DNA of 64,000 nt from Massalongia carnosa (taxonomy: Eukaryota). Numbering within the stretch: the first letter of the stretch is position 1; each line of letters opens with the position of its first letter. The position numbers and the translations under genes are program-made. Below are positions 38,630 to 43,282 of the stretch, one piece after another. The stretch is taken from the NCBI GenBank assembly GCA_965645245.1, contig OZ287068.1:682001-746000 (forward strand), given 5' to 3'. The notes beneath the pieces are model-generated. The model did no database searches. It saw only the letters and a program-made list of their open reading frames with translations, and was not told the origin of the DNA.

Positions 38630-39097
38630 GGTGTTATACAGGTAAGGCGGGTCGTAGAACAGTAGTTCTTGAAAGACACATCATTTGATAGGTTGAAGTT
38701 CCGGCTATCCTTTAGGGGATACCTAACAGGGCGCGAAGTTGGCCCTTGTCAATAAACCAACACTGGGACGGAGGGCTCTCTTAGGCGGTCGATAGATTGA
38801 AATGTCCCACATGTCGTAAGGTACGGAGTAGGTATCTTTAGGGCTTCATGTATAAGGCACAATACAGCTAGTTTAGCGATAGTAATATTGCAGCGGCGCA
38901 AATGCTAGTTACTTATCGGGCGCTCCATCAAGCGCAATTCCTCATCGATAACGCCCCAAACCGGGTCCGCCTACGCAAATAAATAAGAGTATAGTATCCT
39001 ACCTTAATCACTGCTTCTGAACGAAACGTGCGGTAAGACACCTTCGCTGCGCATCAGTATTCGTTCTTCTCTGCTACAGTCTACTCTGTACTCGAGT

Positions 39098-39225
39098 GGT
39101 AATTTCTTTCATGCCTCTTGGTTTTCTGCTTGAAATACTGATAGTGTTGATTTATAGTGAGCTTGAAAAACGGAACCACCCCCTCAAACACAGTGCTATG
39201 CTCTGCTTACGCCTAAATTAAATAG
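39098..39225 (+). other. Candidate [D1,2] spliceosomal twin intron in the RAT1 5' leader
   Basis: G39098 + [GTAATT...TACTGAT...TTATAG, 39099-39157] + TGAGC... Removing the inner intron recreates a GTGAGC donor for an outer intron ending AATAG at 39225. Confidence 0.5.
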
Positions 39226-39235
39226 CTATAAAAAA

Positions 39236-42200
39236 ATGGGTGTCCCAGCCCTCTTCAGATGGCTGTCTCAGAAGTATCCCAAGATCGTTTCGTCCGTCAT
39301 CGAAGAACAGCCTCACGAGGTAGATGGACAACAAGTGCCTATTAATACCCTCCGTTCAAATCCCAATGGGGAAGAGTTCGACAATCTGTATCTGGATATG
39401 AATGGAATTGTGCATCCATGCTCTCACCCAGAAGACCGGCCGCCGCCGGCAACAGAAGAGGAGATGATGTTGGCGGTGTTTGCCTATACAGACCGCGTGG
39501 TGAACATGGTTCGGCCGAGAAGGCTTTTGCTTATTGCTGTTGGTATGTCTAAAGCTGTGGAGGTCCAGGATAAGATCTGGGCTTGTGTCCCCTCTGTGGA
39601 CGGCTGCCCTATCTACTGAGATTTCGAAGTCGCCAAGGGGGGTACATCTCTACAATTTACTTATTCTATCTATGAAAATTTGCGCTGACAATCACGATAT
39701 AGATGGAGTAGCGCCAAGGGCGAAGATGAACCAACAACGTTCGCGCCGTTTCAGATCCGCTCAAGAGGCAAAGGAAAAGGATGAAGACAAGGAGGCATTA
39801 CTCAAGATGCTTAAATCTCAAAATGGAGGCGTGGTGCATGAAGATACATCTAGTCTAATGCAAAAGAAAACTTGGGACAGCAACGCGATTACCCCAGGAA
39901 CTCCGTTTATGGACATTCTAGCCGCATGTCTTAGGTATTGGTGTGCGTATAAAATCAATACTGATCCGGCCTGGGAAAAGGTATACTAATCATCTATCTC
40001 AAACCCAAAAAGAGCACTAATGTTCGTAGGTTAAAGTCATCATCTCAGATGCTACAGTTCCAGGGGAAGGAGAACATAAGATAATGGAGTTTATCAGATC
40101 TCAGCGGGCTTCCCCTGACCATGATCCCAATACCCGCCACGTAATATACGGTCTTGTGTGTGATGAAATGATCTTGAACAACAGGCGGCTAATTATCAAT
40201 ATAGGATGCTGATCTTATCATGCTAGGACTAGCAACCCATGAACCTCATTTCCGTGTTCTGCGTGAAGATGTTTTCTTCCAAGAATCCAAAGCGCGAACA
40301 TGCCGCATCTGTGGACAAAAGGGTCATTTAGCGGACGCCTGCCTTGGGGAGGCAAAACAAAAGGACGGAGATTTCGACGAGAAAGATAAAGCCTTGGCCT
40401 TAAAGCCTTTCATCTGGCTCCATGTTTCGATCCTTCGGGAGTATTTGGAGGCGGAGCTCTATGTGCCACAGCAGCCGTTTCGATTCGATTTAGAGAGAGC
40501 TTTGGATGATTGGGTATTTATGTGCTTCTTCGTGGGGAATGACTTCCTCCCACATTTGCCAAGCCTTGACATCAGAGAGAATGGGATTGATACTCTCATT
40601 GCGATTTGGCGCGATAACATTCCTCTCATGGGTGGTTATGTTACTAAAGATGGTCACGTCGACTTAGAGCGAGCCCAATTTATACTAGATGGCTTGGCAA
40701 AACAGGAAGATGCGATCTTCCGACGCCGTCGACAAACAGAAGAGCGAAGAGATGCAAACGCCAAACGTCGAAAGCTTGATGAGCAGAGCAGAAGCAATAA
40801 TCGAAGCTCTAGCAGCGCAAATTCTGCCGGACCTAATACTCGTCGCAAATCTCCAGACTACACCACGCCCACCCATCATGGTACACCCCGCGCTAAGCCA
40901 GTAAACCCCACAGTGGCTCCCCCAGACCTTCCTCTATTCATTCCTAGTAAAGGTCATATCTCACGAGAGGAAAAGGCAATGACCCATGACATGGTTGTAA
41001 ATCGTAATTCGGTCTATAAAGCGAATATTGCAAATAAAAGTGCTGCGGCTACGCTGAAAAGCCGACTACTCAATGGCGGTAGGGGCAGCGAGGTTCCAGG
41101 TTCATCCACTGACAAGGCTCAAGACACCGTTGGACAAGTAGAGCCTTCTGAGAATGTGGAAGCAGAGAAAACGCCTTTATCAGCTCTAGGCAAGAGAAAA
41201 GCGGAGTTTATAGATGACGACGATAGCAGCACTCCCGGCCGCAGTTCTCCGAATCCTTCCAAGACGAACGGAGACATTGATGAGCCTCCACCAGACAATA
41301 TTCGTCTATGGGAAGAAGGCTATGCTGACAGATATTATGAGCAAAAGTTCAGCGTTGACCCCAAGGATGTTGGATTTCGCAGCCAGGTTGCAAAGGCGTA
41401 CGTTGAAGGCCTTGCTTGGGTGCTACTATATTACTTTCAAGGCTGTCCGTCTTGGACCTGGTACTATCCTTACCATTATGCTCCTTTTGCTACGGATTTT
41501 GTCGATTTGAATCGAATGAGTATTAAGTTCGAGAAAGGGAAACCTTTCAAGCCTTTTGAACAGTTAATGGGCGTTTTGCCCGCCGCTTCCAATCACGCCA
41601 TCCCAGAGGTTTTTAGGTCCTTGATGAATGACGAAGACAGCGATATCATTGATTTCTACCCAGAAGAGTTCCCTATTGACCTTAACGGTAAGAAATTTGC
41701 GTGGCAAGGGGTTGCTTTGTTGCCTTGGATTGATGAAAAGCGACTATTAAGCGCTATGGCAACTAGATACCCACTACTGTCAGCAGAAGATGCAGCCAGG
41801 AACGAAATGGGCAAAGATGTACTGATAATGTCTGATCGCCACCCTCTGTATGAGGATGTAGCAACCAATTTCTATTCCAAACGCCAAGGACTCCCAGTAT
41901 TTAAAATAAACCCTCAAGTGAGCGGGGGTCTAGCCGGTAGTGTTGAGAAAAACGAGGATTACTTACCTCAGAGCGCTCTTACATTCCCGTTAGACGATGG
42001 TGGAATGCCCAACCTCGATGAGGATCACTCAATCAGGTATGTCCTAATTGAGTTATTGGATGATTTGCTCTCTAACGACGACGCTAGTGTTCACTATGAA
42101 ATGCCTCGCTCCACGTACATTCATAAATCAATGCTTCTTGCCGGCATCAAATTTGCTCTGCCGGCACTCGATCGTGCTGATATTGAAGCAACAAAGGCTC

Positions 42201-42652
42201 GCGCGAACCGCTCAGGCCGTTCATATGGGGGGGTACCATTGCGAGGCGATCAAGGAAACGGTCGTAGTCGAGGTGGTCAAACTCAATTTGCTGACCCGAG
42301 GCCTAACCCTTTCGCCGCCCACGTCAATCCAGGTTTCCTTCCGCAGGTCGTGCCAGGAAATTATCGGGGAGGGCCACCTCCGCCCCCAGCAGGTTGGGGG
42401 CCCCCTCCGCCAGGATCTGAAGATTTTCGACGGGGTCCTCCGCCACCGCCCAGTTCATATGGAGGCCTTCCTCATGGATATCCGCCCCTTCCACAAAACT
42501 TCAATTACGGTAGGCCGCCCCCACCTTCACCCCAAGGCTACTATAATGGACATCATGATGGAAGTTATGGGACTCAATTTTCCAGCAACCAATACTCCGG
42601 TCCACCTCCAGATGGTCGGTATGGAGGGTATCACGACAGGAATGGCAGATGA
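39236..42652 (+). CDS. RAT1: Nuclear 5'-3' exoribonuclease Rat1/Xrn2, 5 coding exons
   Basis: [65 protein letters not shown] knuckle [14 protein letters not shown] and a Pro/Gly-rich tail. Confidence 0.97.
39543..39702 (+). other. 160-nt RAT1 intron containing a ~105-nt predicted three-way-junction RNA structure
   Basis: GTATGT donor, GCTGAC branch at 39684 and ATAG acceptor. Stems found by hand: 39556-63/39647-54, 39564-69/39576-81 and 39584-93/39637-46. Confidence 0.6.
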
Positions 42653-43282
42653 TATATCTGTTTTTGATCGAGGTTTCCTGCGATCGACGACGTCAGGCAA
42701 GGGCATATTATTTTTTTTCTTTTTCGGATGTGTACTTGATGTATTTTGATTTCCCAGATAAGTCCGGCATTCCGCAAACACGATGCCGTGTAACGTAGGA
42801 CAGTATAATACCCACGTTTGAAGGGTCCAGAACCCCTAGTTCCTCTGTCGTTGGTAGGACAATGTAAAAGTTTAAATTCGGCCTCCGAGAGGCGACAAAT
42901 ATAGCAACTTATAGAGAATGACCTAGCAATACAGGAGAAGCGAGATCTTTCTTCCAATCCCGATGTAGCAAACATCTTTCTTAAGCTTGAGAGAATGATC
43001 TTCTTCAACAATTCAATAAATCTAGACTTCGTTGTTCTCAGCGGCAGGTAACTCTCCAGTTACGGGTATGATGATGATGGGGGAATAATAGAGAAGAATC
43101 TTACCATCCGCTTCACCGTGGGTCTGCTTGCTTTTCAGCCCCCAGGCTAAATCCATAATACTTAAATATGAGGGTCACGGTTAAGTGTAACATTCAATAT
43201 TGATGCCAGCATTGTATTTAGTTAAGTGATTTTCTGGCTCAAGATTGTTGCTGGCGGAAGTGAAACAGTTCCTCATTTCTAG

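Follow-up and report, generated by a model that had tools for sequence, protein, structure and literature searches.

A sequence-conserved RNA hairpin in the oversized first coding intron of RAT1 in Massalongia carnosa and other filamentous ascomycetes

The nuclear 5'-3' exoribonuclease Rat1 (XRN2) ends transcription by RNA polymerase II, matures ribosomal RNA and small nucleolar RNAs (snoRNAs) and clears aberrant nuclear RNA. Beyond one nematode study, we know of almost nothing on how its level is set in cells. The question raised here comes from the RAT1 gene of Massalongia carnosa, which lies in a stretch of 64,000 nucleotides (nt) of genome assembly GCA_965645245.1 (contig OZ287068.1, positions 682,001 to 746,000 of the forward strand; this stretch is called the window, and its own numbering is used throughout). 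The first coding intron of this gene is 160 nt long, and the second and third, as read from the sequence, are 47 nt (39983-40029) and 49 nt (40156-40204). What fills the first one? An earlier reading, here called the original prediction, took it to be a three-way junction rich in G-U pairs and a candidate cis-regulatory or intronic noncoding RNA. The comparison with orthologous loci presented below leads to the following picture: intron 1 owes its excess length to an old RNA hairpin (39584-39646 in the window). The hairpin exists on the sense strand specifically, is conserved in sequence and in position among orthologous introns, and has been lost repeatedly. We are highly confident that it is a conserved RNA element under selection.

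Intron 1 and its fold

From position 39236 onward, the plus strand encodes the N-terminus of Rat1/XRN2. Exon 1, which shares 70-86% identity with its counterparts in the 80 ortholog loci introduced below, ends with the residues ...RRLLLIAV, and removal of intron 1 joins these to a split Asp codon and the frame of exon 2. When the intron of the window is read through, a stop codon is met 25 codons into it. The features needed for what follows are listed here, all of them on the plus strand.

39236-39542, exon 1 of RAT1/XRN2, with the ATG at 39236; 102 codons and the first base of the split Asp codon
39543-39702, coding intron 1, 160 nt, phase 1, GT..AG; GTATGT starts at 39543 and TAG ends at 39702
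39556-39563, 5' strand of P1, UGUGGAGG, in minimum free energy (MFE) folds; outer helix, lineage-specific
39564-39581, small hairpin P2, UCCAGG-AUAAGA-UCUGGG, in MFE folds; lineage-specific
39579-39654, full match of the covariance model R1 described below, 65.8 bits
39584-39595, conserved hairpin, 5' strand of the lower stem, UGUGUCCCCUCU, C/U-rich; from fold and alignment
39597-39605, conserved hairpin, 5' strand of the middle stem, UGG-A-CGGCU, with the A at 39600 bulged
39606-39627, variable tip with a small AUCU-ACUG-AGAU hairpin; tip loops differ among orthologs
39628-39635, conserved hairpin, 3' strand of the middle stem, AGUCGCCA
39636-39646, conserved hairpin, 3' strand of the lower stem, AGGGGGGUACA, a G run followed by GUA
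39647-39654, 3' strand of P1, UCUCUACA, within a tract that is pyrimidine-rich after the hairpin in most orthologs
39685-39689, branch-point motif CTGAC, with the branch A at 39688
39703-39982, exon 2, opening with the AT of the Asp codon, from the translation

The fold had been drawn by hand as P1, P2 and a longer hairpin P3 (39584-93/39637-46, continued by UGG-a-CGGCU/AGUCGCCA and the AUCU-ACUG-AGAU tip). Unconstrained MFE folding with RNAfold reproduced all three helices, with only one-base shifts of register. The whole intron, the 99-nt core (39556-39654) and the antisense strand were each compared with 200 dinucleotide shuffles. The whole intron folds at -48.1 kcal/mol (z -2.11), a value equalled by 6 of its shuffles, and the core at -43.5 kcal/mol (z -3.38), equalled by a single one; the fold is thus better than that of shuffled sequence, as had been anticipated. 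The antisense strand reached -31.0 kcal/mol (z +0.42; 128 of 200 shuffles equally good). Given the difference between the z-scores of the sense core and the antisense strand, the strand specificity that had been attributed to pairs of G with U is real.

Conservation of the hairpin in orthologous introns

Relatives of exon 1 were collected from metagenome contigs, and the best 80 of 277 confirmed relatives were used; exons 1 and 2 were placed in each of these loci by tblastn. The intron call at 39543-39702 is well supported by them: a GT..AG intron splits exactly the same codon in 50 of the 80 loci. No intron is present in 27, and three loci end before exon 2; at the end of one of the latter (L012) a partial match to the covariance model was seen. 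The lengths of the 50 introns are bimodal, with 35 at 135-175 nt and 15 at 49-98 nt. The core of P3 is conserved in 34 of them, the holders, whose introns measure 135-175 nt with a median of 159, and 15 of the 16 introns without the hairpin are those of 49-98 nt. The exception, L062, has an intron of 160 nt (2343-2502), the sole long one here that lacks the conserved hairpin. The branch of this locus is long (0.65), and its intron contains a GCGCUCU...AGAGGGCGU pairing, a short one, which might be a collapsed remnant of the hairpin.

The consensus of the hairpin, which is ~60-75 nt long, reads YCUCCCCU, 1-4 unpaired bases, GGACGGCU, a variable tip of 15-30 nt, AGUCGYC, R and AGGGGGG, mostly with UA added; its 3' part after AGUCGYC is AGGGGGGUA. 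The C/U-rich strand pairs with AGGGGGG(UA), and GGACGGCU pairs with AGUCGYC, with a G-U wobble that is conserved and an A or C that is bulged out. The resulting bulged helix comprises roughly 20-25 bp, and the predicted loops at its tip vary among the orthologs in both length and sequence. In the holders, 25-51 nt separate the 5' splice site from the start of the hairpin, and 47-78 nt lie between the end of its G run and the 3' splice site.

Covariance model R1 was built from a MAFFT alignment of 26 distinct sequences. On the plus strand it scored 22.1-67.3 bits in the window and the 34 loci, and at most 27.6 bits at the same places on the minus strand. No further copy was found above 14.5 bits in the 395,861 bases of the window and the 80 loci; as the position of the hairpin is also orthologous, it is not a dispersed repeat, such as a miniature inverted-repeat transposable element, within the sequence searched. 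A match upstream in L021 (1963-2062, 14.5 bits) was rejected, its 5' half not being conserved in the related loci L023, L026 and L027. A weak plus-strand match at 42650-42717 of the window (13.1 bits, E 0.11), just past the end of the long RAT1 reading frame, is probably due to chance.

The remainder of the predicted structure found no support in the comparison. P1 and P2, and with them the three-way junction, are conserved neither in sequence nor in position, and no counterpart of P2 occurs at a fixed place in the ortholog introns. Pairing of the P1 type, which joins the region downstream of the 5' splice site to that upstream of the branch point, is present in the window. As most holders have a purine-rich 5' flank and a pyrimidine-rich 3' flank (20 of 22 have a U at position +8 after the G run), outer pairing of some kind can usually form in them. 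Outer helices formed from 15-nt flanks were, however, hardly better when matched (-7.9 kcal/mol) than when swapped between species (-7.2 kcal/mol; p = 0.11). The structural distance between 5' splice site and branch point in MFE folds (median 17.5 in long introns versus 6.5 in short ones) was judged uninformative, because such folds pair the ends of almost any sequence. A two-part control module of the intron together with the RAT1 leader had also been proposed; blastn with the 536 nt upstream of the ATG (38700-39235) found nothing similar in the 80 loci, and the proposal gains no support. What is left of the candidate regulatory or noncoding RNA is the sense-specific P3 hairpin, without P1 and P2.

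Selection on sequence and pairing

The information content, anchored on the stems, is 0.91 bit per position in the 5' strand and 0.98 in the 3' strand versus 0.15 in the 5' flank and 0.29 in the 3' flank, which is not what is expected if pairing alone were constrained and the sequence were free to drift. Among 22 non-redundant holders (231 pairs), the median identity is 0.79 for the exon-1 protein, 0.56 for the hairpin strands, 0.32 for the 3' flank and 0.32 for fourfold-degenerate sites, which are saturated. Across this divergence the hairpin is still found by plain blastn: intron 1 of the window matches the other loci only via its hairpin part, and the block from intron 2 to intron 3 only via exon 3, with no blastn similarity to other loci in introns 2 and 3 themselves. 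Unpaired features have been kept as well. The discontinuity between the lower and middle stems occurs in nearly all members, and the bulged A or C is conserved too. Part of the tip sequence (AUCU/AGAU) is also conserved.

The conserved element probably acts as an RNA structure, with modest statistical support. Folded individually, 21 of the 26 distinct sequences adopt the two-tier hairpin, and the z-score is below -2 in 16 of the 26 (median -2.19). The register of the middle stem shifts from lineage to lineage. Both strands have changed together in L029 (CCUCCUUGAG/CUCGAGGAGG and GACGAU/AUCGUC), L034 (ACUUCUCC/GGGGAAGU) and L024 (UCCUUG/CAAGGA). At each pair of the lower stem, 4 to 8 of the 26 sequences have U-G, a pair that exists only in the sense RNA. 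Pairing was tested on two alignments, each against 500 shuffles. In the MAFFT alignment of the 26 sequences, evaluated with an 18-pair structure specified by the authors, 31 cells were changed on both sides versus 20.2 in shuffles (5 of 500 reached 31), and partners slid along the alignment were paired in 47-56% of the cells. The second alignment had been fitted to the model and leans to structure for that reason; it comprised 24 sequences, L032 and L033 having been omitted because the model would have brought in their antisense matches. It gave 27 doubly changed cells versus 18.0 (6 of 500) and a covariation score of 0.342 versus 0.293 (3 of 500), with slid partners paired in 48-56%. The covariation that had been looked for is thus present as an excess of double changes but is modest overall, since the hairpin strands are themselves conserved in sequence.

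Distribution and history

The closest named protein to the large RAT1 exon of the window is that of Pseudocyphellaria aurata (75% identity over 88% of an 815-residue query), and its nearest named relatives are lichen fungi of the Lecanoromycetes. The named relatives nearest to the holders belong to the Lecanoromycetes, the Eurotiales and a rock fungus of the Dothideomycetes. L037, of which identical copies occur in three metagenomes, shares 91% identity with Thermoascus thermophilus (Eurotiales). L043 is closest to Coniosporium apollinis (71%), and its assignment to a class is weak because this species is of uncertain placement within the Dothideomycetes. In a panel of 38 named proteins, most of the remaining holders are nearest to Lecanoromycetes. 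In L043 (2970-5198; also in L040), RAT1 after intron 1 is a single frame of 742 codons, uninterrupted by counterparts of introns 2 and 3; both loci keep the hairpin-bearing intron 1, of 175 nt.

A protein tree of 195 columns, unrooted and poorly resolved at depth, places the holders on many deep branches, interleaved with loci that have a short intron or none. Examples of loss are L052, with an intron of 58 nt, which adjoins L036 with one of 144 nt, and L044 and L048, without the intron, which adjoin L068. The simplest history is an ancestral intron that bore the hairpin, followed by repeated shortening or loss of the intron; with a tree of this kind the order of events is inferred only. The pattern of sequences is best explained if the hairpin predates the split of the Lecanoromycetes, the Eurotiomycetes and a Dothideomycetes-like lineage.

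Known RNA classes and splice-site readings

No family of Rfam 15 accounts for the intron: its covariance models, those of snoRNAs included, gave no match in 38900-40300 (E up to 10) nor in 20 holder loci at gathering scores. Inspection of the window sequence revealed no box C/D or H/ACA boxes, a RUGAUGA box included, and a pseudouridylation pocket is excluded because the internal loop, of 1-4 nt, is far too small. On the minus strand at 39964-40053, overlapping intron 2, sub-threshold matches to SNORD33 (17.3 bits, gathering score 44) and sR11 (15.4 bits, gathering score 39) were treated as chance. A hammerhead was rejected, the hammerhead-like CUGAUGA being found in L001 only, and a kink-turn was rejected since the register does not fit.

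Exonuclease-resistant RNAs, as known from flaviviruses, had been put forward as a second possibility. The likeness lies in the window fold, which forms a three-way junction within a transcript exposed to a 5'-3' exonuclease. The part that is conserved is a plain bulged hairpin without an Rfam match and the junction is lineage-specific; neither a conserved junction nor a ring was found, no pseudoknot search having been made, and the proposal is not supported.

Several readings of the hairpin as a splicing or coding signal were also tried. The G run is followed by GU in 20 of the 26 sequences and by GUA in 16, which could suggest a hidden or decoy 5' splice site of GURNGU quality. It was rejected as such: the 40 distinct real 5' splice sites all carry a G at +5, which only 6 of the 26 sequences have by script, or 8 when L031 and L068, in which the script anchor is one base off, are added by eye. 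A nested intron or poison exon was rejected as well, with an AG after the pyrimidine strand in only ~9 of 25 sequences by eye and no branch motif upstream. A coding role was rejected, as the distance from the start of the intron to the hairpin is not constant modulo 3. Nor does the hairpin look like a substrate of the budding-yeast enzyme Rnt1, the (A/U)GNN motif occurring in 2 of 30 predicted tip loops; this is a yeast rule, and it may not hold for the RNase III of Pezizomycotina.

Possible functions of the hairpin

The reading that we favour, tentatively, is that of a retained cis-regulatory hairpin which tunes splicing against decay of the RAT1 pre-mRNA and so has a role beyond constitutive splicing. 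It is suggested by the long retention of the hairpin in many independent lineages, by the conservation of its sequence and by that of the discontinuities in its helix. As in regulated genes of the RPL22/RPL30 type, a conserved structured element is found inside an intron of the gene that it would regulate. It would act in cis on the RAT1 pre-mRNA as a recognised hairpin, most likely a putative protein-binding site, and would determine how quickly intron 1 is spliced out. Unspliced RAT1 RNA, in which translation would meet the intronic stop after 25 codons, would be a substrate either of nuclear 5'-3' decay, that is, of Rat1's own activity, or of nonsense-mediated decay. High Rat1 activity would then lower the output of RAT1 and low activity would raise it, as in negative feedback. 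In C. elegans, autoregulation of XRN2, in part through destabilisation of the xrn-2 transcript itself, is reported (Miki et al. 2016, PMC5025045). A specific Rat1 feedback loop through the intron 1 hairpin is nevertheless rather unlikely. We likewise give only a small chance to a model in which nuclear 5'-3' exonuclease activity is kept constant by a homeostat with the hairpin as its sensor arm. The hairpin would hold intron 1 slowly spliced, and Rat1 or Rat1-Rai1 would degrade the waiting pre-mRNA in competition with splicing or would arrive via a partner that binds the hairpin. A drop in Rat1 activity from whatever cause, such as inhibition by adenosine 3',5'-bisphosphate (pAp) under sulphur or salt stress, would in that case automatically raise RAT1 mRNA.

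A number of observations weigh against the regulatory reading. Rat1, an exonuclease, is not known to bind internal hairpins. Covariation is modest: 76.1% of the cells in the MAFFT alignment are paired versus 73.9% in shuffles (22 of 500 as high), and 76.8% versus 73.8% (3 of 500) in the model-fitted one, and by the tool's own caveat 5-25% of unstructured alignments reach comparable values. The RNAalifold consensus retains only a C/G lower stem of 6 bp (-3.5 and -4.2 kcal/mol in the two alignments), and five of the 26 sequences (L005, L022, L014, L016 and L031) do not form the two-tier hairpin unaided. The G strand is invariant and the 5' strand varies between C and U, which is expected from selection for pairing alone, because G pairs with both. 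The hairpin has moreover been lost several times; the holder label needs 7 changes on the tree, compared with a mean of 18.5 when shuffled. One of the loci without it, L030, is 100% identical over 193 residues to Rat1 of Penicillium citrinum and has an intron of 84 nt. With repeated losses that include this one, the hairpin is dispensable. Finally, long introns of Aspergillus in general tend to contain conserved bulgy hairpins (PMC2467506).

The main rival of the regulatory reading, which the original prediction had named as the simpler explanation, is that the hairpin merely aids splicing: an old insertion, which made the intron too long for a splicing system with a preference for 50-90 nt, would have been tolerated since its fold draws the branch point close to the 5' splice site, and precise deletions would occasionally remove it, without any regulatory role. 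We consider this possible, if somewhat doubtful. Pairing in P1, P2 and P3 reduces the unpaired sequence between 5' splice site and branch point of the window intron to 13 nt plus ~35 nt. Once the core hairpin is taken out, however, most orthologs keep ~45 + 60 nt and not an intron of 55 nt, and the outer helices that would close the gap are without demonstrable co-evolution (p = 0.11, as above). The long introns of Aspergillus, with a mean of 183 nt, are enriched in conserved bulgy hairpins of ~60 bp that have been read in this way (PMC2467506). The short length of 15 of the 16 introns without a hairpin and the repeated clean losses, which yield normal short introns such as that of L052 beside L036, also agree with it; retention on many deep branches of three classes is unexpected if loss is neutral or favourable. 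Selection for pairing alone would fit the invariant G strand opposite a C/U-variable one, but the stem discontinuity and the bulged A or C, which are unpaired, are conserved too. Retention of the sequence across three fungal classes is not easily explained by an aid to splicing.

Three further explanations carry less weight. RNase III cleavage followed by digestion by Rat1 is an established pairing in yeast, and a bulged helix of ~20-25 bp is long enough for enzymes of this type. A cut by such a double-strand endonuclease would give Rat1 a 5'-monophosphate entry point, and unspliced RAT1 transcripts would be destroyed or transcription would end early, much like Rnt1-dependent decay and fail-safe termination in budding yeast. 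This is improbable: just 2 of the 30 tip loops predicted are A/UGNN tetraloops, conservation of stem sequence like that seen here is no requirement of RNase III enzymes, and an intronic cut would kill the transcript at any level of Rat1 and so would by itself provide no feedback. Intron-hosted small RNAs are common in filamentous fungi (see also PMC8216456), and RAT1 could be the mere host of a small RNA of an undescribed class, released from the spliced intron by an exonucleolytic trimming that depends on Rat1. The conservation in sequence of both strands and of part of the tip (AUCU/AGAU) would suit such an RNA. It is very improbable in view of the lack of an Rfam match (window, E up to 10; 20 loci, gathering thresholds), of visible C/D or H/ACA boxes and of an internal loop large enough for a guide pocket; moreover, the element is confined to intron 1, and where this intron is short or missing no copy occurs elsewhere in those 5-kb loci. 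Least of all do we expect the inverted CCCCT and AGGGG motifs, present in most members, to be protein-binding sites in the DNA of a first intron, with the RNA fold as a by-product. These motifs presumably resemble stress-response elements. In L024, L022, L029 and L034, however, the C and G runs have changed in step, so that the motifs are destroyed and the pairing is kept; U-G, available to the sense RNA only, is used at every pair of the lower stem (by 4 to 8 of 26 sequences), and the antisense model scores far lower.

Relation to known systems

Long introns of budding yeast contain "zipper" pairings between 5' splice site and branch point, and the outer pairing in the window brings the splice signals together in a like manner. 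Stem-loops of Rnt1, an RNase III, are said, in work of Rondon and colleagues from 2009, to provide an entry point for Rat1. A stem-loop in nascent RNA would be coupled to Rat1 here too, a coupling that is our proposal; A/UGNN is not conserved in the RAT1 hairpin (2 of 30 loops), whereas its stems are conserved in sequence.

The long-intron hairpins of Aspergillus are the closest in form: they are bulged hairpins of ~60 nt in the middle of introns 2-3 times the usual length (McGuire and Galagan 2008, PMC2467506). They differ in that pairing is conserved within one genus, whereas the RAT1 hairpin is conserved in sequence across three classes. Neither the Aspergillus compaction nor the zipper is matched in another respect, in that the core RAT1 hairpin alone does not restore a normal intron size in most orthologs. 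Autoregulatory intronic hairpins of the RPL22 type reported in yeast (PMC4838235) likewise place a structured element in an intron of a gene for an RNA-handling protein and share the proposed logic of splicing control with decay of the unspliced form. The RAT1 hairpin is a candidate element by comparison, and Rat1 is an exonuclease with no known specificity for hairpins. In the nematode the likeness is that the enzyme level is adjusted by feedback via its own transcript; that report attributes this to the intercistronic region of an operon and a cryptic promoter and not to an intronic hairpin (PMC5025045).

Screens for structured RNAs in fungi have yielded comparable motifs. Conserved structures lie in an intron of RPS13, in an intron or the 5' untranslated region of lysyl-tRNA synthetase and in an intron of metacaspase 1B (Gao et al. 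2021, PMC8216456), and an earlier screen gave 15 motifs (Li and Breaker 2017, PMC5640933). Like some of these, the RAT1 hairpin is a structure tied to the intron of one gene across Pezizomycotina, but its covariation is weaker than these screens required. RAT1, XRN or exonuclease is not mentioned in the main text of the former or in the main text and three supplementary files of the latter. A literature search of limited coverage found no description of a structure in an intron of RAT1, XRN2 or dhp1. Deeply conserved and apparently undescribed, the core hairpin of RAT1 belongs with the conserved intronic RNA structures of fungal genes and forms a deep-rooted addition to their short list. Screens based on covariation would tend to miss it, because its stems are conserved rather than covarying.

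As an element common to three classes of filamentous ascomycetes and conserved in sequence, the hairpin offers a handle that can be mutated to study how the level of the enzyme is controlled. If it were the sensor of a homeostat, feedback on this enzyme, which is essential to RNA decay, would be ancient; lichen fungi, moulds akin to Thermoascus and rock fungi would have kept it, and some lineages, Penicillium for example, would have given it up. If it only aids splicing, it would be a clean natural case of an intron insertion retained by the need to fold.

Matches in metagenome contigs

One lichen-metagenome run contains 89% of the sampled words of the RAT1 gene of the window. In a comparison of contigs of the lichen-metagenome run X4 with 38900-40400, 6 differences were found in 1501 nt, one of them in intron 1 and none in the hairpin. 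The single intron difference, C>T at 39689, affects the last base of the branch motif and turns CTGAC into CTGAT, so that CTGAY is preserved. A 504-nt contig of run X5 (organism B) equals 39159-39577 of the window without a difference and continues with 85 unlike letters. The point of divergence, 39577-39578, lies inside the intron just before the conserved hairpin, and the X5 contigs do not span 39578-39697; an assembly break or a structural difference could be the cause.

Two further sets of matches were noted at exon 2. Contigs of X5, X8 and X9 match 34 nt of low-complexity sequence coding for a Lys/Glu/Asp-rich stretch (39782-39815) with 3 differences. They have a depth of 50-143 and are otherwise unlike the window, X8 and X9 matching only there, and probably represent unrelated abundant sequence. 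X4 and X5 each have a second contig whose match is confined to 39698-39739, 42 nt across the junction of intron 1 and exon 2, with 8 differences; it likely derives from RAT1 or XRN1 of a different organism in the sample.

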